A stretch of 64,000 nt of DNA from Candidatus Nomurabacteria bacterium (GCA_943356415.1 CALREW010000001.1:149252-213251); one strand, 5' to 3'; positions 4,600 through 63,892 are shown, counted from the stretch's first letter. Program-made: numbers and translations. The notes: generated by a model not told the origin, from the sequence alone.

Positions 4600-5700
4600 A
4601 TGAAGTCTGGACATCTTGATTACCCGTTCCTTTTTGTAACGTTACTGCTGTCTGCAACTGGCTTTCTTATTTTCTCGTCTGCAGCACTGGGTCTCCTTGC
4701 TCGCGAAGGCGCTTCGTTTGCAACGGTAGCTGGTACGCAAGTCCTCTTTGGTATTGTCTGCGGACTTATCGCCCTGTATGTCACCTCTCGTATAGACACC
4801 CGGTTATTGCGTCGCTTTTCTATCTATGTCTTTGGTATTTCGTGGATTGCGGCGTGGCTTCCATTTGTACCAGTTATTGGGCTCACGCTTAAAGGGGCGC
4901 ACCGTTGGATCGAGATAGGCGGCCTTTCATTCCAGCCTGCGGAACTCCTTAAAGTAGGGACTATCATTCTGCTCTCCTCGTACTTTGCTGCGTTTGCAAA
5001 CAAAGCCCACACCATCCGACACGGACTTATCCCATTTCTCGGCATTATTGCGATTGCCGCACTTCCGCTTGCCTTGCAACCCGACCACGACGGCATTCTT
5101 ATCCTCGGCATTGCCGGAGCTGCGGTGTACTTTGCGGCAGGGGGTCGCTTCCTTCATCTGCTTGGACTTGGCGTACTAGCGGCTGTAGTAGCAGCGCTGT
5201 TTATTTTCTCCAGACCTTACGTGATGGATCGCATAAAAACGTTTATCGACCCTTCACGCGACCCGCTTGGTGCCGGCTATCAAGTGACCCAATCGATTAT
5301 CGCCGTGGGTTCTGGTCAAGCGGTCGGTCGCGGCTTTGGACAAAGTATTCAAAAGTTCTCGCACCTACCCGAACCAATAGGGGACTCGGTATTTGCGGTT
5401 GCTGCTGAAGAGTTTGGTTTTGCCGGTTCAGTATTTTTAATAACGCTCTTCGTTGCATTTGCTGCGGCAGGTTTACGCATCGCTGCACTTTCAGCAGATA
5501 GATTTGGTGGCCTATTGGCGGTCGGACTTGTTGTGCACATAGTTAGCCAATCATTTATCAATATTGCATCTATGTTGGCGCTCTTTCCGTTATCGGGAAC
5601 CCCGCTTATTTTTGTAAGCCATGGCGGCACAGCCCTTCTTATTGCGCTCGCCGAGACTGGTATCATCCTTTCTGTATCGAGGCGTTTACGTAGTTCCTAA
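4600..5700 (+). CDS. ftsW: SEDS family peptidoglycan glycosyltransferase (FtsW/RodA)
   Basis: 10-TM SEDS-like sequence; between mraY and murG. Confidence 0.75.
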   Translation: MKSGHLDYPFLFVTLLLSATGFLIFSSAALGLLAREGASFATVAGTQVLFGIVCGLIALYVTSRIDTRLLRRFSIYVFGISWIAAWLPFVPVIGLTLKGAHRWIEIGGLSFQPAELLKVGTIILLSSYFAAFANKAHTIRHGLIPFLGIIAIAALPLALQPDHDGILILGIAGAAVYFAAGGRFLHLLGLGVLAAVVAALFIFSRPYVMDRIKTFIDPSRDPLGAGYQVTQSIIAVGSGQAVGRGFGQSIQKFSHLPEPIGDSVFAVAAEEFGFAGSVFLITLFVAFAAAGLRIAALSADRFGGLLAVGLVVHIVSQSFINIASMLALFPLSGTPLIFVSHGGTALLIALAETGIILSVSRRLRSS

Positions 5701-5705
5701 ATTGC

Positions 5706-5730
5706 GAACGCCCCCAAGTGAGGGGGCGTT
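5706..5730 (+). terminator. GC-rich hairpin AACGCCCCC-aagtga-GGGGGCGTT after ftsW, at the boundary of a GC-rich island
   Basis: 9-bp perfect stem; second hairpin AGACGG-agg-CCGTCT follows. Confidence 0.4.
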
Positions 5731-5769
5731 GCCCGAAGACGGAGGCCGTCTGCGGTAGTTGTTGTTGGT

Positions 5770-6618
5770 TCACCAGCGCCAGTTGATGGTGATGGCCCTG
5801 GTCTCGTGGACCTTGGCCAGCATGTAGCCAGCGAAACCGGCGACCAGGCTACCGGTCAGGAAGATGACCGTCGCCGTGGTATTGAAGCCAGGCGTGAAGC
5901 CCGTCACCTTGCCGATGGCGAGGCCGGTCAGCATGCCGAGCGCGGCTCCAGTCACCGCCGCGATGTGGGCATCCGAGACGGTGAACCAGTAGAAAGCCGT
6001 CGCAAACCGCGCAGCGAAGCGCACGATGGCCACGACAGCCGACAGCAGGTACGTCGAGTAGTGGACGACGCCCATCGGCATCCAGATCAGCAGCGCGGGG
6101 ATGCTGAAGTAGAGGAACGCCGAACCAGGAGCGACCCCGATGACATCAAACACGAAGCCGGTGCTGTAGCTCATCTTCTTCTCGAGGCGTTGGGCGCCAT
6201 ACATGGCACCGAGCGCGATGATGCCCGGCAGTCCAGCGAAGACGAAGGCACTCGTGGCCACTTCGCTGAATCCCGCTCCCACCGCGAGCGCTGCATCCAC
6301 TGGCGGAAGAGCCATGGCGGCCCAAAAGAAGAAGCCGTAGATAGCGGTGCCGCTAGCAACGAGATAGACCACAGCCACGATGACAGTGGTCCTCCTCCAG
6401 ACCGCACGGAGGTGCGCCGGATCGGTCGTCGTCGCCCACGCGTGCCGAAGACCGGCAAGGAAGGCTGCGGGGTCGCTCATGAACCACGAAACAGCGAGGC
6501 CGAGGAGCGAGCAGCAGACCAGCGACAAGCCGGTCGTGCCGAGGTACGCGTAGAAGGCGAGAAAGGTCGCCGCTCCGCCAATCGCAGAGAGAGCAACCTG
6601 ACGCTGCAGATGTGTCAC
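5770..6618 (-). CDS. Hypothetical multi-TM membrane protein in a GC-rich (about 62%) island between ftsW and murG
   Basis: Long ORF with multiple hydrophobic helices; opposite-strand ORF 5806..6744 is Arg/Asp-rich low-complexity, typical antisense artefact. Confidence 0.45.
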   Translation of the reverse strand: MTHLQRQVALSAIGGAATFLAFYAYLGTTGLSLVCCSLLGLAVSWFMSDPAAFLAGLRHAWATTTDPAHLRAVWRRTTVIVAVVYLVASGTAIYGFFFWAAMALPPVDAALAVGAGFSEVATSAFVFAGLPGIIALGAMYGAQRLEKKMSYSTGFVFDVIGVAPGSAFLYFSIPALLIWMPMGVVHYSTYLLSAVVAIVRFAARFATAFYWFTVSDAHIAAVTGAALGMLTGLAIGKVTGFTPGFNTTATVIFLTGSLVAGFAGYMLAKVHETRAITINWRW

Positions 6619-6772
6619 GCTTTGTGCACTCCGTCTTTACGGACATCCGGAAGTGGAGCCGTTCCGAAATGCACTGTACTACTGAAAATAGACTTCGTCT
6701 ATAGTACGCCGCTTACTGGGAAATACTCTTTAATTTCATGCTAATCTGTAGGAACTACTAATAGTCAGAGGG

Positions 6773-7900
6773 ATGAAAATACTGCTTACAGGAGGAGGTT
6801 CAGGAGGCCATTTTTACCCCATAATCGCGGTGGCAGAAGCTATCCGTGACTTGGCAAAAGAGCGCAAGCTGCTCGATCCTTTTCTCTATTACGCGGCGCC
6901 AGAGCCGTATAATGCGCAGTCTCTTGTTGAGAACGATATTACATTCGTCCAGACTTCAGCCGGAAAGATGCGACGCTATTTTTCATTGCTTAACTTTTTT
7001 GATTTCTTCAAAACGGCATGGGGGGTTACGGTGTCAGTCTTTCGCATTTTTTTCCTGTACCCAGACGTTATTTTTGGCAAAGGAGGGTACGCGTCGTTCC
7101 CGACACTCCTTGCGGCGCGACTTTTTCGCATTCCAGTTGTCATTCACGAGTCCGACACCGTGCCTGGACGCGTAAACAAATGGGCGGGTAAATTTGCCAC
7201 ACGTATCGCCGTCTCGTACCCACGCGCCGCAGCATTTTTCCCAAAGGACAAAGTGGCAGTGACCGGTAACCCCATACGCAAAGCGATACTCACACCCGCA
7301 ACCGAAGGAGCGCACGAGTTTCTCAAACTTGAGCGGGAAGTGCCTGTCATTCTCGTTGTTGGTGGTTCACAAGGCTCTGCAGTTTTAAACGACGCCATAC
7401 TGCGTGCATTGCCTGACCTTCTTGCAGATTTTCAAATCATCCATCAGACCGGCGCGGCAAACCTCGCAGAAGTTGAACAGCTGGCGTCAGTTATTCTTGC
7501 AGACTCGCCCTACAAAGGACGCTACCGCCCGTTTGCATATCTCGACGATCTTGCGACACGTATGTCTGCCGGGGCCGCGTCGCTTGTTATTTCTCGTGCC
7601 GGTTCTGCCATCTTTGAAATTGCCGCGTGGGGCAAGCCAGCCATTCTCATTCCTATTCCAGATAGCATTGTGAAAGATCAAACAACAAACGCCTTTACGT
7701 ACGCACGCGGAGGTGGAGCCGTGGTGATAGAACAAAACAATCTCTCCGCGACACTTCTTGCATCAGAAATTCGCCGCATCCTCAACAATCAAGATCTCTA
7801 TGACCGCATGCGTCTTGCTGCGACTGCTTCATCGACGGCAGATGCGGCGCGCATTATTGCAGACGAATTGTTACGCATCGCACTCTCGCACGAAAAGTAA
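6773..7900 (+). CDS. murG: Undecaprenyldiphospho-muramoylpentapeptide beta-N-acetylglucosaminyltransferase
   Basis: MKILLTGGGSGGHFYP N-terminus, GT28 family. Confidence 0.85.
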   Translation: MKILLTGGGSGGHFYPIIAVAEAIRDLAKERKLLDPFLYYAAPEPYNAQSLVENDITFVQTSAGKMRRYFSLLNFFDFFKTAWGVTVSVFRIFFLYPDVIFGKGGYASFPTLLAARLFRIPVVIHESDTVPGRVNKWAGKFATRIAVSYPRAAAFFPKDKVAVTGNPIRKAILTPATEGAHEFLKLEREVPVILVVGGSQGSAVLNDAILRALPDLLADFQIIHQTGAANLAEVEQLASVILADSPYKGRYRPFAYLDDLATRMSAGAASLVISRAGSAIFEIAAWGKPAILIPIPDSIVKDQTTNAFTYARGGGAVVIEQNNLSATLLASEIRRILNNQDLYDRMRLAATASSTADAARIIADELLRIALSHEK

Positions 7901-10563: not shown

Positions 10564-10618
10564 TGCAAAAGGCGCTGCGGGATTTCTCCCGAGCGCCTTC
10601 GCCCGTTTCTTGATGCGC

Positions 10619-11119
10619 TTACGCGCTAGAAGCTGCCACCGAAGCCAGACGAGGCCGCTGGCGGATGAGAAGTTTACCCTCCACCACCTCGCCAAAGCCT
10701 GACTCGCGGTACATCTCACCCGCCGCGCCTTCCATGACATGCGCGACGATGGCGAGATGCCGCTTCGCCATGCTGTCAGCCTCGTTGACGAGGCATTCGA
10801 TCAGCGCCGCCCGGAGACGCAGCAACTCTTCGCCGTCCTTGATGGGGGCGAAGAAGAAGTTGGTGATGATCCCGGCGTTGCCGCTCAACAGGTCGAGGTG
10901 AGCGAGCGAGGCCGTCGCCACGATCCGGCCGGTCTTGCCGATCAGGCTACGACGGACCACCGCGATGCGGCAGGATGTCATGACGCGCTGGAGGCCTTCG
11001 AGGGTGACGGACACGCCACCTTTCGAGATGTGGTGGAAATCGTCGACATCAGCTTGCGTCACGCACGAAGGGTGCAGCGTATGGGCTTGGCCATAGACGA
11101 AGCCAGTGTTCTCAATCAT
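10619..11119 (-). CDS. Hypothetical protein (GC-rich island); start placed at MIENTGF, track ORF extends to 11215
   Basis: ORF in about 62% GC DNA downstream of the GNAT gene on the same strand; no recognisable motif. Confidence 0.35.
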   Translation of the reverse strand: MIENTGFVYGQAHTLHPSCVTQADVDDFHHISKGGVSVTLEGLQRVMTSCRIAVVRRSLIGKTGRIVATASLAHLDLLSGNAGIITNFFFAPIKDGEELLRLRAALIECLVNEADSMAKRHLAIVAHVMEGAAGEMYRESGFGEVVEGKLLIRQRPRLASVAASSA

Positions 11120-11283
11120 GGCTCTAACCTCACAAGTTGCCAGTTGGGGAAACAAAGCAGATATTCGAACAGGTACAATCGATAAAACCATACAATAAAC
11201 CTTATATTCCGTCAATATAACGAAAACCGCCAGGGGAGACCCCGGGCGGTTTCGCTACTCACTCGTAGCTGGTGGATGGATAT

Positions 11284-11775
11284 TCACGTGCCGCCCGGGG
11301 TCCAACGATAGGTCCGTGTGTGGCGGCGCTGCACACCCCAGCCCTGCATCGTCGAGCCTTCGTAGAAGGCCTGTGCACCCGTCTTGCTCGAAGTCCAGTC
11401 GACGTGATCGAACTTCTTCTCACGCGCGACTTGGAACAGCTTGCGCATGACACGTTTGCCAAGGCCTCGGCCTTCATGTGCGCGGAGCGTCGAGACGTCA
11501 TTGACCGTCGCGAAGCGCTTGCCGACGTACTCCGCGAGCAAATGCGGCGTCATGATGGCCATCGAGACGATGGTGCCGCCACTGTCGCGCACAACCACCC
11601 AATACGCGCCTTGCGCAAGGACCATCTCATAGTGCCAACGCAGCTGCTCGAGCGACTTCGCAGGCAAGCTTTTGTTGCCAGCCAAATGCTGCATCAAAGC
11701 GGCGATGGCCTGCACATCCTTATCCGTAAGACGCTGTCCTCCGATCAACTCAGCCTCGCTGTAGGCTTCAGCCAT
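11284..11775 (-). CDS. GNAT family N-acetyltransferase (GC-rich island)
   Basis: Acetyl-CoA binding motif RAHEGRGLGKRVMRKL and C-terminal GAQAFYEGSTMQG. Confidence 0.7.
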   Translation of the reverse strand: MAEAYSEAELIGGQRLTDKDVQAIAALMQHLAGNKSLPAKSLEQLRWHYEMVLAQGAYWVVVRDSGGTIVSMAIMTPHLLAEYVGKRFATVNDVSTLRAHEGRGLGKRVMRKLFQVAREKKFDHVDWTSSKTGAQAFYEGSTMQGWGVQRRHTRTYRWTPGGT

Positions 11776-11863
11776 TGTCTTGGCCTCCCAGCCACTGTTT
11801 CAACCTCAGGGACTATAACCAACTCTCGTAGAAAAAAGTAGCGGACAGGGAAGTCGCTCCTCA

Positions 11864-11909
11864 AAAACAACAACGCCCGCGAGGAGTTACCCTCGGGGCG
11901 CGTGTTGAA
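11864..11909. repeat. Left copy of a 46-bp perfect inverted repeat (AAAACAACAACGCCCGCGAGGAGTTACCCTCGGGGCGCGTGTTGAA)
   Basis: Exact reverse complement found at 14154..14199; also hairpin-capable. Confidence 0.9.
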
Positions 11910-11935
11910 GTGATCCTTCGAAGTGATCCTTCAAG
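11910..11935. repeat. Tandem 13-bp direct repeat GTGATCCTTCGAA / GTGATCCTTCAAG abutting the left IR
   Basis: Read directly. Confidence 0.8.
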
Positions 11936-11946
11936 GTGCTGCGGCA

Positions 11947-12246
11947 TCACCTCTTCAGGCTGGCGATGACGTAGTTCGCCAGCGACCAGAGCGTGCCGAA
12001 ACCTGCGGCGACGGCGATGAAGGCCGACACGCCCCTGATAGGGCCAGCCGAAATACTTGCCGCGACAGCGACGCAGATGGCGCAAATCAGGCCATAGAAC
12101 GCTGCGCAGATCAGTTCCTGCGCGATATCGTTCAGTTCGTCCCACACGGGGAATCGCGGCTTACGGCGAGATGTAATGGACATTGTTCGAAGCCCTTCGC
12201 GCGAATGCCTCTGCACGAGCTTGATTGCTCTTAAGGTGCAGTGCAT
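11947..12246 (-). CDS. Hypothetical small membrane protein (99 aa, GC-rich) inside the IR-bounded cassette
   Basis: Two predicted TM helices; GC-rich codon usage. Confidence 0.35.
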   Translation of the reverse strand: MHCTLRAIKLVQRHSREGLRTMSITSRRKPRFPVWDELNDIAQELICAAFYGLICAICVAVAASISAGPIRGVSAFIAVAAGFGTLWSLANYVIASLKR

Positions 12247-12748
12247 TTAACCAAACATACGGTACCACACTTATTTAATTTAGCTAGCCTAGCCGAGATT
12301 TTGAACTAAATAGGGGAGACAGGCTTCCCTAAACCTCCATGATTTTTTGACTAAACCTTCAGCCGCGTTAACAACCAGGGAATTACATACCCACAAACCA
12401 ATCAGATTTATATACACGCGGTGTGTGTGGGGTAGAAGGTCTGTTGCCTTAGACTCAAAGCCCAGTACTTGGCTATCCTAGTTCGTCTATAGCCATACGT
12501 CGCAAAAGGTATATTGTGCGACGTATGTAATCTCTTCTCCCCTAGGGACTAGGATGGCCGAGACGGTTGGTTGGGGCTTAGTGCCCTACGACGTTGTGCA
12601 GCGCGTGGCGCGACAGAATGGCACCGGAATACTTTTATGGGAAAGAAGCGAGTGAAGGCTGAATCTAATAGGTCTACCCCCCCCCCGACCGATTTGCTCA
12701 GGAAACCGGGGGAGACCGGCTTCCCTATTTCAGCGTAGAATTGTACCT

Positions 12749-13192
12749 GTGAGACATCAGGAGCTCGTAAAACGGATTCGCGAAAATGCTGAGCAAGGCC
12801 GGAGATTGGAAGCCTTTTTGCTACTCATGGCGTACATAGAGACTATTTTCAACATGCACCTGCAGTTTGTAATTATGATGGCTGCGAATAAGCAAATTGG
12901 TGATAGTAAGCCAATGGATACTGTCTATAAGAAAATTGAGCGGATGCGTATCTCAGAAGTTTTGCAAATGCTTTTTGACATGCAGCAGATCGAAAAAGAG
13001 TTTAAGAACAACCTGGGAAAACTTTTTGATAAGAGGAATCAATTAATACACGACGTCGTAAGTCACGTCATGTTCAACGTTAAATTAGACGACTCACTTA
13101 CTGAACCTTACGAGCAGGCTTTTACTGTGTTGGAAACGGAAATTTTTAAAAGCTGGACTGCCACACTTGATCAGCAATTTACAGGCAATTAG
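12749..13192 (+). CDS. Hypothetical all-alpha protein with a HEPN-like Rx4H motif (KRNQLIHD); candidate RNase toxin or abortive-infection effector
   Basis: RNQLIH matches the R-[NHQ]-x3-H HEPN catalytic motif; AT-rich; GTG start; convergent with a membrane protein gene. Confidence 0.45.
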   Translation: MRHQELVKRIRENAEQGRRLEAFLLLMAYIETIFNMHLQFVIMMAANKQIGDSKPMDTVYKKIERMRISEVLQMLFDMQQIEKEFKNNLGKLFDKRNQLIHDVVSHVMFNVKLDDSLTEPYEQAFTVLETEIFKSWTATLDQQFTGN

Positions 13193-13232
13193 GCAGAGAA
13201 GTCTTGTCTGAAAGAAAAAGTATTTACATCCC

Positions 13233-13958
13233 CTACCTGTCTCTACTTTTGCGCCACGCGATAAACTCTAGGAACGGCAAGCAGACAAAATGACAGGCTT
13301 CTCTAAACAGGAGAAGTGTGCCGATCCAGACACTTAGAACAACGTAGTAAATCAAAATCGCATAATCCCATTTGAATATAGTGTGTATACATGCGTCTGA
13401 TCCCGGGCCAATATCGATTGCCATATGCTGCCCAGAGCTGAAGGTTGTTGTAGAAATTGGCGTCGCCGCAAAGAGAGTAGTTGTTGAAGCCATCCGTTTT
13501 CCAAGTTCACTTATGGGCAAGTTAGACCAAATGGTTTTTTCGTCGTGAACACTCAAACTAACGGAGGCGTCAGTTGGTGTCATTACCACATAAGAAACTT
13601 CGCTTGCTTGTGAATATTCTCCAGTTTCTACATTTCTAAATCCGACTGACTTTAGGTTGTTTGACGCCACAACATCAGCAATAAACCAACTGTCGGTAAA
13701 TTTGATTATAGGTTCCAGTGATTTCAATTCTTCATACGTAAAAGTAGTACTCTGGTTATTTCTTTCAGGGATTAGGCAAAAATCTCTTGAATAATGCTTA
13801 TCAACCCACACTAAAAATATAAAAGGGACGACAAGAATAAAAAGTGTTTTCCTAAATTGAGCACTGGCAAATAATCTAACAAGGAAATCTTTGACTTGCG
13901 GACCTTTCGAAGCAAGCCATTTTAACCTGACCCACCATTTAATAAGCACTTCTTTCAC
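13233..13958 (-). CDS. Hypothetical membrane protein (TM helices at both ends, central extracytoplasmic domain), AT-rich
   Basis: Hydrophobic segments LFILVVPFIFLVWV and YAILIYYVVLSVWIGTLLLF; convergent partner of the HEPN-like ORF. Confidence 0.45.
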   Translation of the reverse strand: MKEVLIKWWVRLKWLASKGPQVKDFLVRLFASAQFRKTLFILVVPFIFLVWVDKHYSRDFCLIPERNNQSTTFTYEELKSLEPIIKFTDSWFIADVVASNNLKSVGFRNVETGEYSQASEVSYVVMTPTDASVSLSVHDEKTIWSNLPISELGKRMASTTTLFAATPISTTTFSSGQHMAIDIGPGSDACIHTIFKWDYAILIYYVVLSVWIGTLLLFREACHFVCLPFLEFIAWRKSRDR

Positions 13959-14153
13959 GTTCTAACCCTACCACCAATAATTTACGCTAGAAGGGGTCTT
14001 CCCTTCTCCTGTAGAATGTAGCTGTGGGCTATATAATTAAGAAGAATATTCTACTTACTGGCGCTGGCTTCAGTGCAAATTTTGGTGGTCTCCTTGCTGC
14101 GGATAGTCCGAAACGACGAGGGAAAACCGCCAGAGTAATCGGTTCGGTTCGAG

Positions 14154-14199
14154 TTCAACACGCGCCCCGAGGGTAACTCCTCGCGGGCGTTGTTGTTTT
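14154..14199. repeat. Right copy of the 46-bp perfect inverted repeat; on the + strand it reads as hairpin plus T-run (terminator-like)
   Basis: Exact reverse complement of 11864..11909. Confidence 0.9.
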
Positions 14200-15426: not shown

Positions 15427-15457
15427 GCAAAAAGGAGGCTTTTGGCCTCCTTTTTGC
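15427..15457 (+). terminator. Hairpin GGAGGC-ttttg-GCCTCC flanked by A-run and T-run (bidirectional terminator-like)
   Basis: Read directly. Confidence 0.55.
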
Positions 15458-15667
15458 ATCTCTTGCGTCTCTTTTGCTCTAGTCGGGCTGCCGGTCGGCC
15501 AGGCGTTCAAGCTTCGCCGTCGCTCACCTTGCCGCACGGCCCTGGCTCGTCATCTTGGGCCGGTGCCCAAGATATGCCTCCGCCTTTCGATTCCCGGCCG
15601 CAGAGTATGCAGATACTCTATTCAGCCCACCCATACGTAAAAGAGACGCTCTCGCGTCTTTTTACTT

Positions 15668-15741
15668 TGGTCGGGCTGCCGGGAATCGAACCCGGTCCAC
15701 ATCCACCCCATGGATGCATACTACCGGTATACTACAGCCCG
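15668..15741 (-). tRNA. tRNA-Pro (anticodon GGG), CCA encoded
   Basis: Manual fold: 7-bp acceptor stem (C1-G70 to G7-C64, 5' CGGGCUG) with discriminator A71 and encoded CCA, U8, D-loop with GG, anticodon loop AUGGGGU (G37), T-arm CCGGG-UUCGAUU-CCCGG. Confidence 0.7.
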
Positions 15742-17547: not shown

Positions 17548-17576
17548 TTGACCATTCTATTTTTCTTTTGTATAAA
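17548..17576 (+). promoter_or_regulatory. Near-consensus sigma70 promoter TTGACC-N17-TATAAA driving the GC-rich ORF at 17610
   Basis: Read directly; RBS GGGAG 7 nt before ATG. Confidence 0.55.
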
Positions 17577-17609
17577 AAGTTTGGACCGAAACACACCAGG
17601 GAGCCAACA

Positions 17610-18407
17610 ATGGCCTCGCATACTCCGTCGTTCTCCTTCGAGGGCTTGTCGGCTTCACAGCTCGCTCAGCTCGCCACGCTCATCTGCAATCGTAAAGACG
17701 CGGCGAACTTCGACGCCATCCTCAGCGAGGTTGGACGTCAGGTTGACCGCTTGGGCGGCCTTCACGACGCACTTCGTCACCTACGGCGCATGGGGAAACC
17801 TATTCCTTCCGCAACGCGCCTGCCGGTGTGGAAAAGGCTGCGACTTGGCACCCGCAGCACCTTCCTGAAATACCGCGCGGATCTCGACGTTCGAGAGTAC
17901 GGCTTCTTCGGCGGCGGGTTAGAGACGTACTACCTGTTTGAGGAACTGCGACGCTTCCGCCCTGCGCAGACGACGCATGAAGTAGACCTTGTTCGACTGT
18001 CCGCAAAGGACCTCGGCTTCATCGGACCGGTGAGCCACACCGACGTCTACGCCATCGCCAGCAAAATGGGACTGGAGCTCTGCACGCCAGAGGTCGGGCC
18101 CGCATTGCGTCGCGTCTACCGGAACCAACCGGTCGGCGAAACGCTCTACGTCGGCATGGAAGCGATCGAAAGACACCGCGCAAGCACGGCGCGTCAGGCT
18201 GATCTCCCACGGAAGTTCGGCTTCGCACTTCACCGCGAGTCGAACTTCAAGGATTACCGCCGGACGCACATGCGGCGGATGAAAAAAGCGCTCCTACTCA
18301 AACCGATCGAGTACGAGCGCTACCCTGAAGAGCCTGGGAATCTACGCTCCCACCCTCTGGTGCAGGGCAACTGGTTCTACGTGTTCGTCCGGCCTCGGCC
18401 GAAATAA
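17610..18407 (+). CDS. Hypothetical protein (GC-rich island, about 60% GC)
   Basis: ATG with GGGAG RBS; GC-rich hairpin (GAGGCCTGCA-tttcgg-TGCAGGCCTC) after stop. Confidence 0.45.
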   Translation: MASHTPSFSFEGLSASQLAQLATLICNRKDAANFDAILSEVGRQVDRLGGLHDALRHLRRMGKPIPSATRLPVWKRLRLGTRSTFLKYRADLDVREYGFFGGGLETYYLFEELRRFRPAQTTHEVDLVRLSAKDLGFIGPVSHTDVYAIASKMGLELCTPEVGPALRRVYRNQPVGETLYVGMEAIERHRASTARQADLPRKFGFALHRESNFKDYRRTHMRRMKKALLLKPIEYERYPEEPGNLRSHPLVQGNWFYVFVRPRPK

Positions 18408-18474
18408 CACGACCACCATCTGTGCGATTCGAGGCCTGCATTTCGGTGCAGGCCTCATCGTATTCAGGTAAGCG

Positions 18475-24949: not shown

Positions 24950-24982
24950 CAAGCCCCGCCCCCAAGTAGTTCGGGGCGGGGC
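24950..24982 (+). terminator. Bidirectional GC hairpin GCCCCGCCCC-caagtagtt-CGGGGCGGGGC
   Basis: Read directly. Confidence 0.55.
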
Positions 24983-24992
24983 ATAAACAGGG

Positions 24993-25616
24993 TCACGTGA
25001 TACGTACGCGGCCCTCGAGCTTCGTAACCAAGGCCCTCACGTTGCGCGCGAGGATGCCCGAGTACGTGTGCTTCCACTCGTCTGAAGCATCTCGCTTCGC
25101 CAGCAATAGGTCGAACGCGCTGGCATACGTGGTGAAATGCCACATGGCCATCTTCGTCAGCATGTCGCCACGTGCTGCATCCATCATTGTGAAGCCTGCG
25201 CTAGCTGCAGGAGATGGTGTGAACTCGAAGAAGAGTCCATCATCGTCATCGGGGGCAACGGACCACAGAAGACCCGAAGGCCATGTGTTGCAATCCCGGA
25301 TGGAAATGTTGAGTGCGCTGCCGACGAGTGGATTGAGGTCCCGCAGCAGCAGATACGTCGTGGCCTGCAATATGGACATCATCTGTTCGGGCTTCTCCGA
25401 GTTTGGGTTCTCGGCAAAATCCCGGAAGGCGGCATCGAGCGGCCGAACCAACGATGTGAAAATCTGCTCCATCCACATCCCGAGCGACTCCGCTTCGCGC
25501 TTCTTTCCATAGCAGGTAATCGACGCAGAATGCGAGAGCCTGAGATGCAGTTTCCACTGTTGCGGCGGCACGCCCTTCGCATCGAAGACGGCCCGCAAGT
25601 CACTTGTAAAGCGCAC
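24993..25616 (-). CDS. Hypothetical protein (GC-rich island), GTG start with GGAGG RBS
   Basis: ORF in about 60% GC segment between recR and rplU. Confidence 0.4.
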   Translation of the reverse strand: MRFTSDLRAVFDAKGVPPQQWKLHLRLSHSASITCYGKKREAESLGMWMEQIFTSLVRPLDAAFRDFAENPNSEKPEQMMSILQATTYLLLRDLNPLVGSALNISIRDCNTWPSGLLWSVAPDDDDGLFFEFTPSPAASAGFTMMDAARGDMLTKMAMWHFTTYASAFDLLLAKRDASDEWKHTYSGILARNVRALVTKLEGRVRIT

Positions 25617-25697
25617 GGCGCGCCTCCATTGCGTGAGGGGTAAAAAGGATTATTGGGCTAGAAAGAATAGCCGCAGTCAGGATGCAACAAATACCTC

Positions 25698-25736
25698 AAA
25701 ACAACAAGACCCACCGAGTGGTGGGTCTTGTTGTTT
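25698..25736 (-). terminator. Intrinsic terminator downstream of rplU: AACAAGACCCACC-gagt-GGTGGGTCTTGTT
   Basis: 13-bp perfect stem flanked by A/T runs. Confidence 0.7.
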
Positions 25737-26172: not shown

Positions 26173-26200
26173 TTGACAAAAATATAAAGAAGTGTACTCT
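26173..26200 (+). promoter_or_regulatory. Promoter TTGACA-N16-TACTCT upstream of candidate rnpB
   Basis: Consensus -35; weak -10 preceded by TG. Confidence 0.4.
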
Positions 26201-26204
26201 GCTT

Positions 26205-27707: not shown

Positions 27708-27808
27708 GCCGATATCATACCGCGACCCGTAGATGCACCCGACTTGCCATCTTGGATAAATGTTGTGTAGGCTCGAAGTGGATCCCGAAACAACCTGACG
27801 GTGATGTG

Positions 27809-52228: not shown

Positions 52229-52576
52229 TTAACCCTTAACACGTATCAACCCCGCTAACATTTTTTGAACTTCAGAGAGTTTAGTAAGCACGTCCCCTAG
52301 AGTAACGTTTGGATACAACCGGGAGACCAAAATGAGCTGAGTCTCCGCCTCAGCTGCCGAGCCACTTGCGATATGTAAAAAATGTACGAATTCTTTCTTG
52401 GTTCCACGTTTAGCCCCCTCAGCAATATTAGATGGAATTGATACCGCCGCTCTACAAAGCTGCGATGCAAGACCAAAACGTTCGCTCTCAGGCAAATTGC
52501 GAGCTGTAAGATAAATATCTTTCACAACATCCATGGCTTTTCGCCAAACAATCAAATCTTTTACAGAATTCTGCAT
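52229..52576 (-). CDS. Four-helix-bundle protein (23S rRNA intervening-sequence protein family)
   Basis: Characteristic WxxA...SIPSNIAEG motif. Confidence 0.7.
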   Translation of the reverse strand: MQNSVKDLIVWRKAMDVVKDIYLTARNLPESERFGLASQLCRAAVSIPSNIAEGAKRGTKKEFVHFLHIASGSAAEAETQLILVSRLYPNVTLGDVLTKLSEVQKMLAGLIRVKG

Positions 52577-53329: not shown

Positions 53330-54019
53330 CTAATGCGCCTTTGTGCGAAATACCTTCCCCGCTTTTGGATATATGGTAACAAGTGGGTCCTTTGAGGTGT
53401 CGTAGGCTCGTGCCGGAGCAATGCGACGCCCGTAGTAGATGACGCGGTGGGTAAAATGTGGCCATTCTTTCTTTGGGAGCATCTGCATCAAGTCTCGCTC
53501 GATGCGAACTGCATCTTTGTAGTCAGAGAGATCGAAGCGGTGCACAAAACGTATGACATGCGTGTCTACCGTGATACCACCGCTTTCACCATACAGGTCG
53601 CCGAGGATAACGTTGGCCGTCTTACGACCCACGCCAGGTATTTTTATCATCTCCGGAAGCGTGGTCGGCAGCTTCCCCTTCAAATTATTCTTTACGTATT
53701 TTGCTGCAGCAAGAATGTTGCGCGTCTTTGCATTTGCAAAAGTGACTGAGCGTATAAGTTTTGAAAATTCTGCCGGATCAGCCACGCAATAGTCGTTGAG
53801 TGTTTTATAGCGTTTAAAAAGCGCCGGAGTCACCCGGTTTACCATTTTATCCGTGCACTGAGCAGACAACTGTACTGCAACCATAAACTGCCATGGCGTT
53901 TTATAGACCAATTCGGTTATGGCTTCAGGGAACAGTTTCTTTAGAGCCTTATCAAGCTTCAAAATACGAGCCTTTCGCTCGGCTAACTTTTTGCCCGTCA
54001 TGGCTAGCTTGCTGGGCAT
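53330..54019 (-). CDS. nth: Endonuclease III; start placed at MPSKLAMTGKK, as the track ORF extension to 54826 is antisense of the GC-rich gene
   Basis: HhH-GPD motif and C-terminal 4Fe-4S Cys cluster region. Confidence 0.8.
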   Translation of the reverse strand: MPSKLAMTGKKLAERKARILKLDKALKKLFPEAITELVYKTPWQFMVAVQLSAQCTDKMVNRVTPALFKRYKTLNDYCVADPAEFSKLIRSVTFANAKTRNILAAAKYVKNNLKGKLPTTLPEMIKIPGVGRKTANVILGDLYGESGGITVDTHVIRFVHRFDLSDYKDAVRIERDLMQMLPKKEWPHFTHRVIYYGRRIAPARAYDTSKDPLVTIYPKAGKVFRTKAH

Positions 54020-54050
54020 AATGACTAGATAGTACTCCACCTCGGATCTA

Positions 54051-54079
54051 TTGACACAGTGGCAGAGTCGGTCTATAGT
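54051..54079 (+). promoter_or_regulatory. Near-consensus promoter TTGACA-N17-TATAGT driving GC-rich ORF 54158
   Basis: Read directly. Confidence 0.6.
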
Positions 54080-54157
54080 CTTTTTTGGTTCGCTTCTCAG
54101 ACCTGGCAACCGCCAATTTCCCCGAAATAAAGGTCTACCATCGCGAAAGGACGTCCT

Positions 54158-54817
54158 TTGACCAAGACCGCCCCGTTCACTGCCCGTCTCCACGCTGCCA
54201 TGGCTGCTGACGGTTCCACTATCCGCCCGCCCGAGCTGGGCGCCGGCATCAAGACCAAAGGCTACCGCGCCTACGGCATCGTCCCGCACAACCTGCGCGG
54301 CCTGACGGCTTTCCACCATGAGACCCGCACGGCCGTCAACGGCATGCTGGACGAGGCCATGCGCATCAGCGCGGACTGCCTGAAGGGCAACTGCGCCTGC
54401 AAGGCCGGCACCTTCGATGTGGTGAAGTTCGCCGACGAGCTCGCGCTCCTGACCGGCGACCTGACCAAGATCGATGGCATCCTGCTCCCCGAGCTGGCGC
54501 CTGCGCTCAACGGCCTCGATCTGAACTTCACCCAGTACGTCATCGGCGACGACTGGTCCATCAAGGCCCCGGCCGACGCCATGCGCAAGCAGAACCCGCT
54601 CGCGATGTTCAGCGAGATGCTGTTCGGCGATGCTGCTGGTCGATCGCCCTTCGGTCGCGGTCGTCGCGAGCGCAACGACGACATGATGGTCGAGGTCATC
54701 GAAATCGGCGGCATGCGCGGTGGTGGCTCGCCCTTCGGTGGCGCCACCACGCTCCGCGATCTGCTCGGCCGTCTCCGCGGCAGCCGGCGTCACGATCAGT
54801 ACGCCGGCTCGGCGTAG
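54158..54817 (+). CDS. Hypothetical protein (GC-rich island, about 66% GC), TTG start with AAAGGA RBS
   Basis: ORF with Gly/Arg-rich C-terminus; followed by terminator. Confidence 0.4.
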   Translation: MTKTAPFTARLHAAMAADGSTIRPPELGAGIKTKGYRAYGIVPHNLRGLTAFHHETRTAVNGMLDEAMRISADCLKGNCACKAGTFDVVKFADELALLTGDLTKIDGILLPELAPALNGLDLNFTQYVIGDDWSIKAPADAMRKQNPLAMFSEMLFGDAAGRSPFGRGRRERNDDMMVEVIEIGGMRGGGSPFGGATTLRDLLGRLRGSRRHDQYAGSA

Positions 54818-54855
54818 CCTCCTCAACCTCTACTCGGCGCGCCTCGCGCGCCGGT

Positions 54856-54886
54856 GGAAGCGCCCCCTTTTCGGAGGGGGCGTTTT
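54856..54886 (+). terminator. Hairpin AAGCGCCCCC-ttttcg-GAGGGGGCGTT plus TTC
   Basis: Read directly; resembles hairpin at 5706. Confidence 0.55.
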
Positions 54887-56664: not shown

Positions 56665-56758
56665 ACAAAGCATTCTACCAAAATGAAACGCCGGCCTGGG
56701 AAGGCCGGCGGCGCCGAATGGCGCGAACTTCGGGGGAATCAACCGTTTCTTCTTGGAG

Positions 56759-57145
56759 TTAGCGGCCCTTTCGGAGATCCGCCAAACTCTCCTCTACCTG
56801 CTCCTTGTGGTAGAGGATGAAGTCCTTGAAGGCGGTTTGGCCGCCCCGCTTGAATTGTTCTTCTCCGTGTAAGACGAAGTTGAGGGCCAAGACGATCACG
56901 TCGAGATCGCGTTGTTCACCCTTCCAGCCGCACAGGTGCTGGTTGTCCTCGTTTTCCGCCATGCACAGCAGCTGACGTTTGAGCGTGAGTAGTTTCGCTC
57001 GCGTCATGTCGACAGTGAACAGGTCAAGCGCCTTGCGTTGCTTGACCCACCCCTGCTCTTCCGCGGTAGTCGTCTGCGCCTGGCCGGAAGCGACCAGAAA
57101 CAGTAGTGCAGCCACAACCAAAGTCGCGGCACGCATTGGGTTCAT
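56759..57145 (-). CDS. Hypothetical secreted protein (GC-rich island)
   Basis: Signal peptide MNPMRAATLVVAALLFLVASGQA; GGGAGG RBS. Confidence 0.4.
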   Translation of the reverse strand: MNPMRAATLVVAALLFLVASGQAQTTTAEEQGWVKQRKALDLFTVDMTRAKLLTLKRQLLCMAENEDNQHLCGWKGEQRDLDVIVLALNFVLHGEEQFKRGGQTAFKDFILYHKEQVEESLADLRKGR

Positions 57146-57267
57146 TTCTGCCTCCCGACCGCTTCTACTGGCACAAGGCGATTGCCTGTCCTAGAACGGT
57201 CTGCCAGGTATAAGACTACAGCTACACTAGGTCGTCAATACACCCTTGTTGATAGTCAATGTTGCCT

Positions 57268-60030: not shown

Positions 60031-60188
60031 ATAAGGATTCTACCTTGCCGTACCGAGGAGTCACTTGTACCCACAGTAACCCTTTTAGGACTGAAAATGA
60101 AAAATAGATTCTCTGTAGGTTTTCCAAAAGAAAAGCCCCCGCCTTGCAGCGGGGACTTCACCACCAGGCCGGAGCCTGGATTTAGATA

Positions 60189-61034
60189 TCAGTTGCGGAG
60201 CGTGGTCCGCAGGTCCTCCATGTGGGCCAGATAGCCCCTCAGCAGAGCGTCGCCCTGCTGGCCGCGACCGGCGTCCTCGTGACGACGGTCGGCAAACTGG
60301 AGGGTCTCCGGCCGCGTGCCGAGCTTCTTGGCCGCATCCTGCAGGACGACCTTGGCGGCGCCCATGGCGTCCCACTTGGCGCCTTCCGTGCCGTCCTTCG
60401 CGAGGTAGGCCGCATGCCAGAGAGCCTGGCTCGAGCGCAGCCCGAGAACGGCGGTGCGGATGCCGTCCTTGTCGTCGAGGTAGGCCTGGGTCGCGGTGAT
60501 GCGCCGGTCGAGATGCGCCATGAAGCGCGCACGCTCGTCGGAGTTCATCTCGCGCACCGTCTTGATGACGGTGAGCTTGTGCTTGTCGTAGAAGGCCTTG
60601 AGGCCCTCGGGCGTCGACAGCACGGATTTGCCCAACGCCAGGGTGACCTTGCGCCAGTTGTAGATGGCCTCGGAGTCCTCCTTCGTGATCCGCGCCTCCT
60701 CGAGGTCGTAGGAGCGCGAGAAGGTGAAGGACGCGTAGAGGACATTGTAGAACTGTCGGTCCTCGTTGACGGCCAGCAGCGGCTGCAGTTGGTCGCGGTA
60801 GAACGCCTGCCGCTCCATGCCACCGCGATCCTCGTAGACCCGCTGGTCCACCGAGGCCATCACCATGCTCGCCACCGTCTTGTTGGTGACGAAGCTGAGG
60901 GCGACACTCGTGGCGACCTGGTCGGTGACGGCCTTGATCTTGGCGCTGATCGTCGGCGACTGCGCGACCACCACGCTGGTGGCCGCCAGAGTCATCAGCG
61001 CTGCGCCAACGATGGCGCGACCGATATTGTTCAT
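60189..61034 (-). CDS. Hypothetical secreted protein (GC-rich island); start placed at MNNIGRA
   Basis: Signal peptide; GGGAG RBS; alternative long ORFs on both strands are Arg/Gly-rich artefacts. Confidence 0.4.
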   Translation of the reverse strand: MNNIGRAIVGAALMTLAATSVVVAQSPTISAKIKAVTDQVATSVALSFVTNKTVASMVMASVDQRVYEDRGGMERQAFYRDQLQPLLAVNEDRQFYNVLYASFTFSRSYDLEEARITKEDSEAIYNWRKVTLALGKSVLSTPEGLKAFYDKHKLTVIKTVREMNSDERARFMAHLDRRITATQAYLDDKDGIRTAVLGLRSSQALWHAAYLAKDGTEGAKWDAMGAAKVVLQDAAKKLGTRPETLQFADRRHEDAGRGQQGDALLRGYLAHMEDLRTTLRN

Positions 61035-61109
61035 AGACTTTTGCTCCCGCCGGCAGTGCCGGTCTTCTAGACATGGAAGTGCCAAACAACAACTCATAGC
61101 ACCTGTAAC

Positions 61110-61139
61110 ATTATACTATACTTATAGTAATATTGTCAA
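61110..61139 (-). promoter_or_regulatory. Consensus sigma70 promoter TTGACA-N18-TATAAT (minus strand) driving the GC-rich ORF 60189..61034
   Basis: Exact consensus hexamers. Confidence 0.65.
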
Positions 61140-62547: not shown

Positions 62548-62576
62548 TTGACATTATATTTTATTTATAGTATAGT
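62548..62576 (+). promoter_or_regulatory. Near-consensus promoter TTGACA-N17-TATAGT
   Basis: Read directly; RBS AAGGGGG before ATG 62624. Confidence 0.6.
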
Positions 62577-62623
62577 TAGTTCGACACCGTCCTTTTTTAA
62601 TTCGCGCAACAAGGGGGCATCCT

Positions 62624-63097
62624 ATGCGCACGCGAAACGTAAATATCCTGGCCTGGGGGCTTGGTCTGATCGTGGGTGGCATCGTCCTCTACGCCGGACT
62701 CGCGGGCTTCGGCTTCTTCGATGGGAGCTGGGCGCCAAGCCGAGCGTCGGCTAACAAGAACCCCATCGACGAGGTTTACCACCTCGTCGTCGCACAGCAA
62801 TTGCCGCCGGGCCCTGGGCCAAACACGACCCGCATCGTCAGCGCCAGCGGGACGTACGTACTTGGTGCTACGGCACCCAATACGTTCAGCGTCTCGCGTG
62901 AGGGGTCACCGAGGCTCGGTGTCGTGATGCAGAAGCTGGGCGACGTCTGGAATTCGACCAGCGTTACCGGTTTTGAAACCACGCTGAACCGGGATTCCGG
63001 GCGAGCGCGTATCCTCGACCCGCAGAAGCTGCAGGATTTCATCAACACGGCAATCAACGCCGCGTTGGCCTGCAGTCACAGGAAGAACATGTGCTGA
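62624..63097 (+). CDS. Hypothetical secreted protein (GC-rich), paralog of 63267..63791
   Basis: N-terminal TM/signal; C-terminus FINTAINAALACSHRKNMC similar to FLMKAFDAARSCGYNKTQC. Confidence 0.4.
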   Translation: MRTRNVNILAWGLGLIVGGIVLYAGLAGFGFFDGSWAPSRASANKNPIDEVYHLVVAQQLPPGPGPNTTRIVSASGTYVLGATAPNTFSVSREGSPRLGVVMQKLGDVWNSTSVTGFETTLNRDSGRARILDPQKLQDFINTAINAALACSHRKNMC

Positions 63098-63146
63098 CCT
63101 CGGTCACCACGCAGCGAGCGCCCCTCACCGGGCGCTCGTTTTGCGT
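63095..63146 (+). terminator. Terminator hairpin GAGCGCCC-ctcacc-GGGCGCTC plus GTTTTGCGT; copy 1 of a near-identical repeat
   Basis: Almost identical to 63789..63842. Confidence 0.6.
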
Positions 63147-63182
63147 CTGGCTACGGCAATTTTGAAAGTAGAAAGAGCGTAA

Positions 63183-63212
63183 TTGACAGATAGTACTTTT
63201 TCGTATCATAAT
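63183..63212 (+). promoter_or_regulatory. Near-consensus promoter TTGACA-N17-TCATAAT
   Basis: Read directly. Confidence 0.55.
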
Positions 63213-63266
63213 ACTTACGTACGCTCGTTGAGTTCCCTTTCCTCAGTTCAATCCTGGAGACACGCC

Positions 63267-63791
63267 ATGTCGTGGTTTATCCGCCTCTTCGTCCCAGTCC
63301 TTCTCCTTCTCGCGCTCGGCGCGTGCGACAACGGCAACAAGAAGGCCAAATCCCCGCCTCCCCCGGCACCGACGGAGCTCGACCTGGCAGCCAACCAGGT
63401 CCTGGACCTCTTCCTCTCGGGCAAGCTGCCCATGGGGAATGATGCCTTCGGCGCCCCTGCGGCCGTCTTCGGCAAGCACACGGTGCCGGCGGTGCCCTCG
63501 ATTAACGCGCCGGCGTACACCATGGAGTACACCATCACGATGGACTCCATCGATAAGTGGACGAGCCTGAAGATCGCTGTCCGCTACAGCAATGGCGCGG
63601 GCAGCTACGTCGGCATCTCTCGGCTTAACACCGAGACGAAGTGGGCCATCAATGGTGTCGGCAACATGCCGTGGACATCCGGGGCCAACTGGAACGAGCC
63701 GGGCAGCGTGGACTATCCACGCTACAAAGAATTCCTGATGAAGGCCTTCGACGCCGCCCGCTCCTGCGGCTACAACAAGACCCAGTGCTGA
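63267..63791 (+). CDS. Hypothetical lipoprotein (GC-rich), lipobox LLALGAC
   Basis: Signal peptide with LALGAC, Pro-rich linker; paralogous C-terminus. Confidence 0.45.
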   Translation: MSWFIRLFVPVLLLLALGACDNGNKKAKSPPPPAPTELDLAANQVLDLFLSGKLPMGNDAFGAPAAVFGKHTVPAVPSINAPAYTMEYTITMDSIDKWTSLKIAVRYSNGAGSYVGISRLNTETKWAINGVGNMPWTSGANWNEPGSVDYPRYKEFLMKAFDAARSCGYNKTQC

Positions 63792-63842
63792 CCTCGGTCA
63801 CCACGCAGCGGGCGCCCCTCACCGGGCGCTCGTTTTGCGTTT
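63789..63842 (+). terminator. Copy 2 of the conserved 3' end plus terminator repeat
   Basis: One mismatch versus 63095..63146. Confidence 0.6.
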
Positions 63843-63892
63843 AGATATGCACCGTTCGACAAACATGGCTGTATTCGTATAATGTGGCGGCT

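Follow-up and report, generated by a model that had tools for sequence, protein, structure and literature searches.

The 64,000-nucleotide (nt) stretch of DNA analysed here (the window; GCA_943356415.1, CALREW010000001.1:149252-213251, deposited as Candidatus Nomurabacteria bacterium) has a GC content of 51.5% and carries ordinary housekeeping genes, including those for leucyl aminopeptidase, GltX, CysS, DnaB, class-I LysS, two PBP2-type transpeptidases, MurA, ThrC, ribosomal proteins L27, L9 and L21, RRF, and MreB. Set among these genes are 16 GC-rich open reading frames (ORFs), which, together with their flanking promoter-like and terminator-like motifs, are denoted here cassettes 1 to 16 and account for about a quarter of the genes in this core chromosomal region. 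The nearest genomes in a species-level collection are metagenome-assembled genomes (MAGs) of Paceibacterota labelled Adlerbacteria or Kaiserbacteria, with DnaB identity of 75% or less; therefore, the source organism is an Adlerbacteria-like member of the Paceibacterota, a bacterium of the Candidate Phyla Radiation (CPR, or Patescibacteria). The explanation that we favour, and consider reasonably probable, is that the GC-rich ORFs are real accessory genes of this CPR bacterium that resemble phage morons, come from a GC-rich flexible gene pool and are exchanged by recombination through their flanks.

An earlier note on this DNA had singled out these 16 ORFs as markedly richer in GC than the housekeeping genes, and the comparison with 53 core genes of the same window bears this out. 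The core genes have a GC content of 0.50 ± 0.03 (maximum 0.546) and a GC content at third codon positions (GC3) of 0.37-0.61, whereas the 16 ORFs have a GC content of 0.57-0.67 and a GC3 of 0.65-0.91, with zero overlap in GC3 between the two sets (Mann-Whitney U = 848 = 16x53, p = 8.6e-10). Codon usage is not uniform either: codon choice is shifted in every synonymous family, as in the codon fractions for ATC (0.86 in cassettes vs 0.36 in core genes), TTC (0.87 vs 0.35), AAG (0.78 vs 0.42) and TGC (0.97 vs 0.55), and the amino acid composition is nearly equal. The 16 ORFs are coding sequences on the strands chosen in the earlier note rather than chance ORFs in GC-rich DNA, because positional GC follows the order GC3 > GC1 > GC2, signal peptides and a lipobox are predicted, the frame is kept across 30-40% nucleotide divergence, and the ratio of nonsynonymous to synonymous divergence (dN/dS) is mostly below 1. 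By hydropathy, 8 of the 16 products contain transmembrane (TM) segments, a signal peptide or a lipobox, in agreement with the previous impression that many are membrane or secreted proteins.

Public gene calls misread GC-rich cassettes at a minimum of three places, either by calling the opposite strand or by fusing it to a neighbour, and this gene class is therefore under-represented or corrupted in protein databases. A 487-aa 'HhH-GPD' protein called at 53330-54826 (-) joins the antisense of 54158-54817 to an HhH-GPD gene whose product has 223 aa in a sister population described below; a 282-aa product is called at 60222-61070 (+), opposite 60189-61034, and a 168-aa product at 25137-25643 (+), opposite 24993-25616.

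Each cassette seems to form a transcription unit of its own. In a scan for TTGACA-N16-18-TATAAT, with matches counted out of 12 and 100 shuffles as the background, six sites with 11 or more matches were found, compared to 0.32 ± 0.55 in the shuffled sequences (~19-fold). Five of these near-consensus promoters precede cassettes by 50-110 nt (33336, 54051, 61139 on the minus strand, 62548 and 63183), and the sixth (63856) precedes a hypothetical gene of normal GC just beyond the last cassette. Six cassettes have a promoter of at least 10/12 upstream, five of them at 11/12 or better, and weaker -35/-10 pairs precede several others; sites at 9/12 were no commoner than in shuffled sequence, only the near-consensus class being significant. 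The earlier count of at least seven near-exact sigma70 promoters thus shrinks to five cassette sites, as the site at 28791 scores 10/12 and the one at 17548 (TTGACC-N17-TATAAA) fails the -10 rule of the scan. Motifs resembling ribosome-binding sites (RBSs) are present upstream of cassette starts. Strong terminators, defined as hairpins with a free energy (dG) of -12 kcal/mol or lower followed by a T-rich tail, occur 3' of 14 of the 16 cassettes vs 7 of the 53 core genes, which upholds the claim that GC-rich hairpin terminators follow the cassettes and are rare after host genes; moreover, three of the seven core terminators are hairpins common to a convergent cassette. The cassette hairpins have near-perfect stems and run into stretches of T, as intrinsic terminators do. 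At the level of motifs, the transcription signals are specific to the GC-rich gene class, and the description as self-contained units holds.

The sharp compositional jumps had raised the suspicion that the contig was chimeric or engineered, and this is refuted by independent assemblies. Logan assemblies (ERR5863124, ERR5863123) and ENA assemblies (ERZ27280315, ERZ27280317), which come from four other samples, match the window at 100% identity over stretches of 2-41 kb each, cassette junctions included. In addition, 13 of the 16 cassettes are found at the same positions in a sister population that is ~97% identical in core genes and is represented in more than 13 further runs (SRR247509xx), where it was assembled many times in contigs of up to 82 kb; this single close sister lineage was used for the population comparison below. 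Contigs of independent assemblies of both populations stop at ~30127-30144, just past the terminator of 29687-30094, and at ~14170, within a 46-nt repeat. These shared contig ends suggest population heterogeneity or a repeat.

Relative to the conserved gene order of Paceibacterota, the cassettes are insertions specific to this lineage. Among 80 loci of related Paceibacterota, taken around DnaB, the core genes of the window's 12.7-35.4 kb region recur in unchanged order in 40-80, whereas the six cassettes of this region had no tblastn match in any of the 80. The gene pairs L27|L9, RecR|L21 and RmuC|YqeY, which flank cassettes in the window, lie just ~50-150 bp apart in most of these relatives (~50 bp for RmuC|YqeY). 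The search for empty sites that the earlier note had proposed was thus successful, with flanking pairs adjoining in relatives and the L27|L9 site empty in the sister population; likewise, the piecemeal acquisition that it had put forward is supported, both by the six cassettes without a match in the 80 loci and by several presence/absence or replacement polymorphisms. GC-rich orphan ORFs are uncommon in the relatives: of 290 orphans, 19 lie above the core median by a margin of 0.07 GC and 29 lie below it by that margin, so that the lineage studied here is unusually loaded with GC-rich genes.

Against a background of 48 core genes with median dN of 0.004, dS of 0.09 and dN/dS of 0.044, the 16 cassettes fall into three groups in the sister population: three are absent or replaced, eight are diverged (43-91% amino acid identity, dN/dS 0.13-1.0), and five are conserved. 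In the FtsW|MurG slot, the window carries cassette 1 (5704-6745, -), with ORF 5770-6618 for a 282-aa polytopic membrane protein of ~8-9 hydrophobic segments (GC 0.637, GC3 0.80) and a terminator hairpin (5704-5732) common to the convergent ftsW. The sister has an unrelated 194-aa GC-rich ORF there (GC3 0.79), with its own TTGACA-17-CATAAT promoter-like site and a similar terminator hairpin. Cassette 5 (17548-18456, +; promoter-like TTGACC-N17-TATAAA at 17548-17576, terminator 18431-18456) contains ORF 17610-18407, which encodes a 265-aa member of a widespread uncharacterised family (GC3 0.73); it is absent from the sister, where the L27|L9 spacer is 129 bp of unrelated GC-rich sequence. A base-by-base comparison of this slot revealed no target-site duplication, the whole intergenic region being different.

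The third ORF of this group, 62624-63097 of cassette 15 (62548-63138, +; promoter 62548-62576, terminator 63114-63138), is absent from the sister through a ~680-bp indel and encodes a 157-aa protein with an N-terminal anchor and a C-terminal Cys (GC3 0.77). Its neighbour, cassette 16 (63183-63834, +; promoter 63183-63212, terminator 63807-63834), encodes a 174-aa lipoprotein with the lipobox LGAC (63267-63791, GC3 0.86), which is mildly diverged in the sister (91% amino acid and 92.6% nt identity). Cassettes 15 and 16 are tandem paralogues with only ~20% protein identity and a nearly identical 3' part that comprises the last codons, the 3' untranslated region (UTR) and the terminator, up to ~60 bases past the stop. 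Slot content differs at two further places: the DinB|Nth slot holds one cassette here and two in the sister, and the slot downstream of murA holds two here and one there.

Divergence is greatest in cassette 12 (54051-54882, +; promoter TTGACA-17-TATAGT at 54051-54079, terminator 54860-54882), the ORF of which (54158-54817, 219 aa, with an uncertain TTG start; GC 0.67, GC3 0.86) is 43% identical to its sister counterpart at the amino acid level, with indels and a dN/dS of ~1, and is followed by a terminator that is 98-100% identical. The sister has two tandem GC-rich cassettes at this 54-kb site, the extra one carrying a copy of the local terminator. Cassette 2 (10571-11215, -; promoter-like TTGACG-17-TATGGT at 11215-11187, terminator 10571-10597) encodes a soluble 166-aa protein (10619-11119, GC3 0.78) with 54% amino acid identity and a dS of 1.07, between flanks of 98-100% identity. 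Cassette 14 (60132-61139, -), with a perfect promoter (TTGACA-18-TATAAT, 61139-61110) and a terminator at 60159-60132, encodes a 281-aa all-alpha protein with a signal peptide (60189-61034, GC3 0.91; 67-68% amino acid identity, dN 0.33, dS 0.63) and is a clear mosaic: the promoter, the 5' UTR, the first ~15 and last ~70 codons, and the terminator are ~98-100% identical, whereas the central ~630 nt are 60-80% identical and contain indels. An AlphaFold2 model of this protein, built from a two-sequence alignment with a pLDDT of 52, was not used for fold search.

More moderate divergence is seen in cassette 8 (28793-29589, +; promoter-like TTGACG-17-AATAAT at 28793-28821, terminator 29564-29589), which encodes a charged 214-aa protein with a basic C-terminus (28902-29546, GC3 0.65; 81% amino acid identity) and has two patches at 58-75% identity within ~98-100% identical sequence. 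In cassette 10 (33336-33802, +; terminator 33766-33802), ORF 33400-33759 for a 119-aa protein with ~3-4 TM segments (GC3 0.84) is only mildly diverged, with 91% amino acid identity to that of the sister, and has one divergent patch of ~80 nt; in these two cassettes, the patches range from 80 to 170 nt and from 58 to 78% identity. The promoter of cassette 10 (TTGACA-17-TATAAT, 33336-33364) is a 12/12 match embedded in a palindrome: at 33322-33364, it lies within an inverted repeat (TATTGATTACTT GACA AGTAATCAATA) that overlaps the -35 box and is a possible repressor operator. Cassette 3 (11227-11830, -; terminator 11227-11249) contains the GNAT acetyltransferase ORF 11284-11775 (GC3 0.74; 88-89% amino acid identity). 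Across the mosaics, promoter, UTR and terminator at 98-100% identity surround ORF bodies at 35-80%, a pattern that fits the import of short tracts from very divergent alleles.

The remaining diverged cassette, cassette 4 (11864-12300, -), has ORF 11947-12246 for a 99-aa protein with two C-terminal TM segments (GC3 0.72; 82.7% nt identity) and a terminator (11874-11902) that lies within the arm 11864-11909 of a perfect 46-nt inverted repeat. The other arm is at 14154-14199, 2244 nt away, so that the terminator hairpin of this ORF is present in both arms, which enclose 11947-12246 and a low-GC (0.43), strain-specific island (12527-14153) with orphan ORFs 12749-13192 and 13233-13958. The sister has only the left arm, with a different AT-rich island of ~6 kb (HEPN, DUF1508 and others), and one Logan contig begins inside the right arm. 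The enclosed segment may be invertible or recombinogenic.

The five conserved cassettes are 98-99% identical to their sister counterparts at the nt level, with dN/dS of 0.05-0.23, values that indicate purifying selection. These are cassette 6 (24953-25700, -; ORF 24993-25616, soluble, 207 aa; terminator 24953-24982; GC3 0.71; 98.9% identity, dN/dS 0.23), cassette 7 (27744-28311, +; ORF 27809-28264, 151 aa, ~4-5 TM segments; terminator 28290-28311; GC3 0.85; 98.2%, dN/dS 0.14), cassette 9 (29606-30141, +; ORF 29687-30094, 135 aa; terminator 30118-30141; GC3 0.81; 98.3%), cassette 11 (35379-35981, +; ORF 35469-35939, soluble, 156 aa; terminator 35960-35981; GC 0.645, GC3 0.78; 98.7%, dN/dS 0.16), and cassette 13 (56689-57238, -; ORF 56759-57145, 128 aa, with an N-terminal hydrophobic segment predicted to be a signal peptide; terminator 56710-56689; GC3 0.73; 98.2%, dN/dS 0.05).

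Homologues were sought among 5.8 billion proteins, to which assemblies of the same samples also contribute. The only homologue of 60189-61034 there is the sister allele, 54158-54817 has none, and for the GNAT only the protein itself, the sister copy and one 50% match were retrieved. Scans of the cassettes against Pfam, PHROGs and PADLOC identified only the GNAT (PF00583, Acetyltransf_1; E = 9e-10, 39.3 bits vs a gathering cut-off of 20.7), all other matches being insignificant, and all-against-all BLASTP of the cassettes showed no significant paralogy beyond the shared 3' ends of cassettes 15 and 16. In tblastn searches with five cassettes, plasmid matches were obtained for the family of 17610-18407 only; this family had no match in phages, and a search of IMG/VR with it and three cassettes gave two distant matches, both to this family. 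The statement that all products but the GNAT are hypothetical therefore holds for Pfam, with the qualification that 17610-18407 belongs to a large uncharacterised family: HMMER detected 1759 relatives at E < 1e-3, mostly of ~200 aa and without a Pfam domain. A profile search of PDB with this family gave nothing significant, and the structural model of 17610-18407 weakly resembles the C-type-lectin/FGE-like fold.

This family has a GC content that is largely independent of its host. In 64 metagenome contigs with flank GC of 0.29-0.68, the GC of its members is ~0.54-0.60, and they are GC-richer than their flanks in all 45 low-GC contigs. A member in a Paceibacterota genome of 37% GC has a GC content of 54.5% and a GC3 of 0.62 vs 0.23-0.34 in the neighbouring genes, and, on conjugative plasmids of Bradyrhizobium, other members are found as hypothetical genes close to the relaxase. 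Upstream of the gene in the 37%-GC relative, an AT-rich spacer (3524-4000 of locus L087) contains several TTGACA boxes, which suggests that the promoter-equipped architecture also occurs in distant Paceibacterota.

Under the explanation that we favour, each cassette would be a unit made up of a promoter-like site of the sigma-70 type (near-consensus in roughly one third of the cassettes), a Shine-Dalgarno motif, one ORF and a strong terminator-like hairpin; these units occupy intergenic slots between core genes or operons, one at a time or in short tandem pairs. The units would be drawn from a compositionally distinct flexible pool (~60-65% GC, GC3 ~0.8, own codon usage) rather than from the vertically inherited core, and would turn over via homologous recombination of imported DNA. 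Crossovers in flanking core genes or in a retained terminator would lead to gain, loss or replacement of whole cassettes, whereas crossovers within a cassette would swap allele cores or short tracts, leaving mosaic, hyper-divergent ORF bodies with a near-identical promoter, 5' UTR and terminator; tandem duplication followed by divergence could produce new members. The cassettes would thus work like phage morons, that is, as add-on genes expressed independently of their neighbours. Their GC-richness would most simply be a property of the gene pool, as in the 17610 family. Because half of the products are predicted envelope or secreted proteins and the diversification is strain-specific, a role in cell-surface interaction is suggested, likely strain-specific interaction with the host cell, phages or competitors.

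Several considerations weigh against this explanation. It offers no reason why the pool should be GC-rich, and no donor or source pool was found, with three of the four cassettes searched being orphans limited to this lineage and without any significant cassette match in PHROGs or PADLOC. Promoter and terminator function is predicted from motifs. With one sister lineage for comparison, the polarity of gain and loss comes from distant relatives only, for the six cassettes at 12.7-35.4 kb. Five cassettes are as conserved as the core and 13 of the 16 predate the split from the sister, so that turnover cannot be fast throughout and the term 'flexible' fits about two thirds of them, and the higher dS inside cassettes could come from local hypermutation rather than from the import of old alleles.

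Recent piecemeal transfer from a high-GC organism unrelated to the episymbiont, such as its bacterial host, with each cassette a captured host gene, would agree with the foreign codon usage, which is typical of a genome of 60-65% GC, with the insertion into conserved synteny and with the presence of the 17610 family on plasmids of the high-GC Bradyrhizobium. We nevertheless find such capture unlikely: it is not supported because no donor homologues were found even in the same samples, where cassettes 12 and 14 and the GNAT have no match outside this lineage. Five other cassettes have no plasmid or phage matches, the 13 cassettes common to the ~97%-identical population cannot be very recent, and the 17610 family is found mainly in low-GC contigs, at least one of them from Paceibacterota. 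Furthermore, the near-consensus promoters look AT-rich to the eye and, at several loci, belong to the conserved flank and not to the exchanged part. The acquisition from a high-GC donor proposed in the earlier note is thus supported with respect to insertion and not supported with respect to the donor, three of the four cassettes searched having no homologue outside the lineage. Alternatively, these could be native, fast-evolving loci enriched in GC in place, through GC-biased gene conversion or other GC-biased repair, given that the GC excess is mainly at third positions, that the GC-rich genes are exactly those with mosaic recombination tracts, and that the 17610 family exceeds its neighbours by ~0.3 in GC3 in two hosts. 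Recombining core genes of bacteria do show higher GC3, in 11 of 14 groups (PMC4450053); in our own reading, the shift of +0.3, which leaves no overlap with the core, seems large beside these modest differences. Enrichment in place is rendered improbable by the six cassettes at 12.7-35.4 kb, which are absent from all 80 relatives with the flanks abutting and are therefore insertions rather than old loci, by the sharp boundaries with AT-rich-looking promoters a few bases away, by the five cassettes that are equally GC-rich with no sign of elevated exchange, and by the GC of the 17610 family, which is roughly constant over 64 contigs instead of being a constant offset above the host.

The GC-rich hairpin in which every cassette ends, kept or copied when cassettes are duplicated or replaced, and the GC-rich piece at tRNA-Pro with a duplicated tRNA 3' end recall an integron-like or other site-specific system in which the hairpins would be attC-like sites for a dedicated recombinase. 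This is very improbable, as the cassettes have no sequence motif in common (the only two related hairpin pairs are duplicates), the hairpins have the form of intrinsic terminators, the cassettes are dispersed over 58 kb in both orientations with their own promoters, and the L27|L9 slot shows no target duplication. No integrase or recombinase is present in the precomputed Pfam listings of called genes (~12-30 and 45-64 kb, plus sister contigs), and a repeat search of the window detected no att- or attC-like sites common to the cassettes. The promoter-equipped cassette system that had been proposed earlier accordingly holds as a structure, which the sister-specific cassettes also have, whereas no dedicated recombination machinery or shared site was found. 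Translational selection for GC-ending codons in native, highly expressed genes would account for the near-consensus promoters, the RBS-like motifs and the preference for C-ending codons in two-fold families; yet, the genes for L27, L9, L21, RRF and MreB in the window are unremarkable in GC3 (0.41-0.54), and the cassettes are strain-variable orphans, not conserved genes of high expression, which leaves this explanation with next to no plausibility. Least credible of all, to the point of being negligible, is that the pattern is an artefact (chimeric assembly, contamination or engineered DNA) or the work of a diversity-generating retroelement (DGR). Apart from the composition jumps, an artefact is contradicted by the identical sequence from several runs and two assemblers and by the same architecture in the 97%-identical population. 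A DGR was considered on account of the Avd-like gene at 52229-52576 and the weak likeness of the 17610-18407 model to a fold known from DGR targets, that of C-type lectins. In the variable patches, every base and every codon position is affected by substitutions, which rules out adenine-specific DGR mutagenesis, and indels occur in 60189-61034 and 54158-54817. The precomputed Pfam listings, covering parts of the window strain, contain no reverse transcriptase, and the window contains no repeat pair resembling the template and variable repeats of a DGR; the DGR idea was rejected on these three grounds. The Avd-like gene itself (52229-52576, -; 115 aa, GC 0.43) belongs to the four-helix-bundle family of 23S-rRNA-IVP and DGR-Avd and is absent from the sister.

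Phage morons, as conceived by Hendrix and Juhala, are single coding regions with their own promoter and terminator, located between genes that are adjacent in relatives, with a composition unlike that of the neighbours; their junctions have no common recombinase target, and the genes often have accessory or conversion functions (PMC4378225). The cassettes are likewise single ORFs flanked by their own promoter-like and terminator-like motifs, lie between genes adjacent in relatives, and differ in composition from their neighbours. Judged from motifs, composition and position, they match that definition point for point except that the recipient is a cellular core chromosome without phage genes nearby: here, genes for ribosomal proteins, aminoacyl-tRNA synthetases and DnaB, as well as mur/mre genes, surround the cassettes. 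Also unlike phage morons, there is no PHROG match apart from the Avd-like gene, IMG/VR yields two distant matches to one family, 16 cassettes are packed into 58 kb, and many slots show allelic mosaics beyond presence/absence.

Flexible islets of streamlined aquatic bacteria of the replacement type are similar in that the same slot holds different and often unrelated envelope-related genes in close strains, with deep allele divergence and exchange presumably by homologous recombination in the flanks, just as the same slot holds different genes in the window strain and the sister. The cassettes differ in being single genes of 0.3-0.9 kb rather than multi-gene clusters, in being GC-rich where islets are AT-rich or neutral, and in carrying near-consensus transcription signals. 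Atypical acquired genes and ORFans of the kind described by Lawrence, Ochman and Daubin are A+T-richer than the core in most bacteria. The cassettes share with them the restriction to a lineage and the deviating GC3 and codon usage; unlike them, they are ~11 points GC-richer than the core. The classical AT-rich kind is present in the window as well (the island at 12.5-14.2 kb and gene 52229-52576). Integron cassettes, too, are small single-ORF units with a hairpin-forming 3' element that, here, is duplicated along with the cassette; no integrase (in the Pfam listings scoped above), attI, conserved attC core or array accompanies the units of the window, and, while integron units are mostly promoterless and co-oriented, these have their own promoters and both orientations. 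A tRNA-linked genomic island is a poor comparison, the units being 0.5-1 kb rather than >10 kb, with no integrase in the same listings and only the 197-bp piece at tRNA-Pro having a tRNA-end duplicate. Islands and individually transferred genes, mostly exchanged among Patescibacteria, are reported from this group (PMC12455944), and the passages of that paper considered here mention neither promoter-plus-terminator packaging nor hot-spot replacement. Our search of the literature on GC-rich accessory genes in CPR found no description of promoter- and terminator-equipped single-gene cassettes.

As a tentative and rather speculative extension, the cassettes might represent an undescribed class of cellular 'morons' in CPR/Paceibacterota, in which GC-rich ORF bodies from a phylum-wide mobile pool are swapped, duplicated and mosaicked into fixed expression slots by natural transformation and recombination, diversifying episymbiotic envelope and secreted proteins. 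Each fixed slot would consist of a near-consensus promoter and a terminator hairpin that reside between core operons; the host-independent GC of ~55-60% (one family, hosts of 29-68% GC) would be the mark of genes whose frequent movement leaves no time for amelioration. CPR genomes are tiny and have a large share of genes without known function, and the window offers a concrete picture of how their host-interaction repertoire may vary. If the pattern is general, GC3 combined with the promoter/terminator signature would allow flexible, probably host-facing genes to be recognised at little cost in any Paceibacterota MAG, the moron mode of gene addition would not be restricted to phages, and the rule that acquired genes are AT-rich would have a counter-example. 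The pattern may also be lineage-restricted, given the 19 GC-rich orphans among 290 in the 80 loci.

Three further features of the window lie outside the set of 16 cassettes. A unit at 26173-26616 (+), between L21 and RmuC, starts with a TTGACA -35 box at 26173 and ends in a strong terminator (26590-26616). It comprises ~400 nt of 55% GC with no long ORF, has an RNAfold z of -2.5 and no Rfam match at E <= 1, and is ~96% kept in the sister; it is a candidate novel non-coding RNA. The lysyl-tRNA synthetase encoded at 41682-43277 (-) is of class I (archaeal-type; TIGR00467, E = 7e-88). Finally, the non-coding fragment that the earlier note had placed at 15456-15640 is real and GC-rich, and proves to be a tRNA-Pro-associated piece without a counterpart in the sister population. 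It occupies 15473-15669 (-), between tRNA-Pro(GGG) (15668-15741) and 23 nt that partly duplicate the 3' end of the tRNA (15472-15494), the order at 15472-15741 being tRNA-Pro(GGG), a terminator, a ~165-nt GC-rich structured piece and the tRNA-end duplicate. The piece matched no Rfam family; it begins and ends with the acceptor-stem halves of the tRNA (GGGCUG...CAGCCCGAC) and has an RNAfold z of -3.1, and could be a tRNA-like RNA or the scar of an integration. These 197 bp are missing from the sister population, in which tRNA-Pro lies at the place where the piece ends and is 87.5% identical, with compensatory changes in the acceptor stem.

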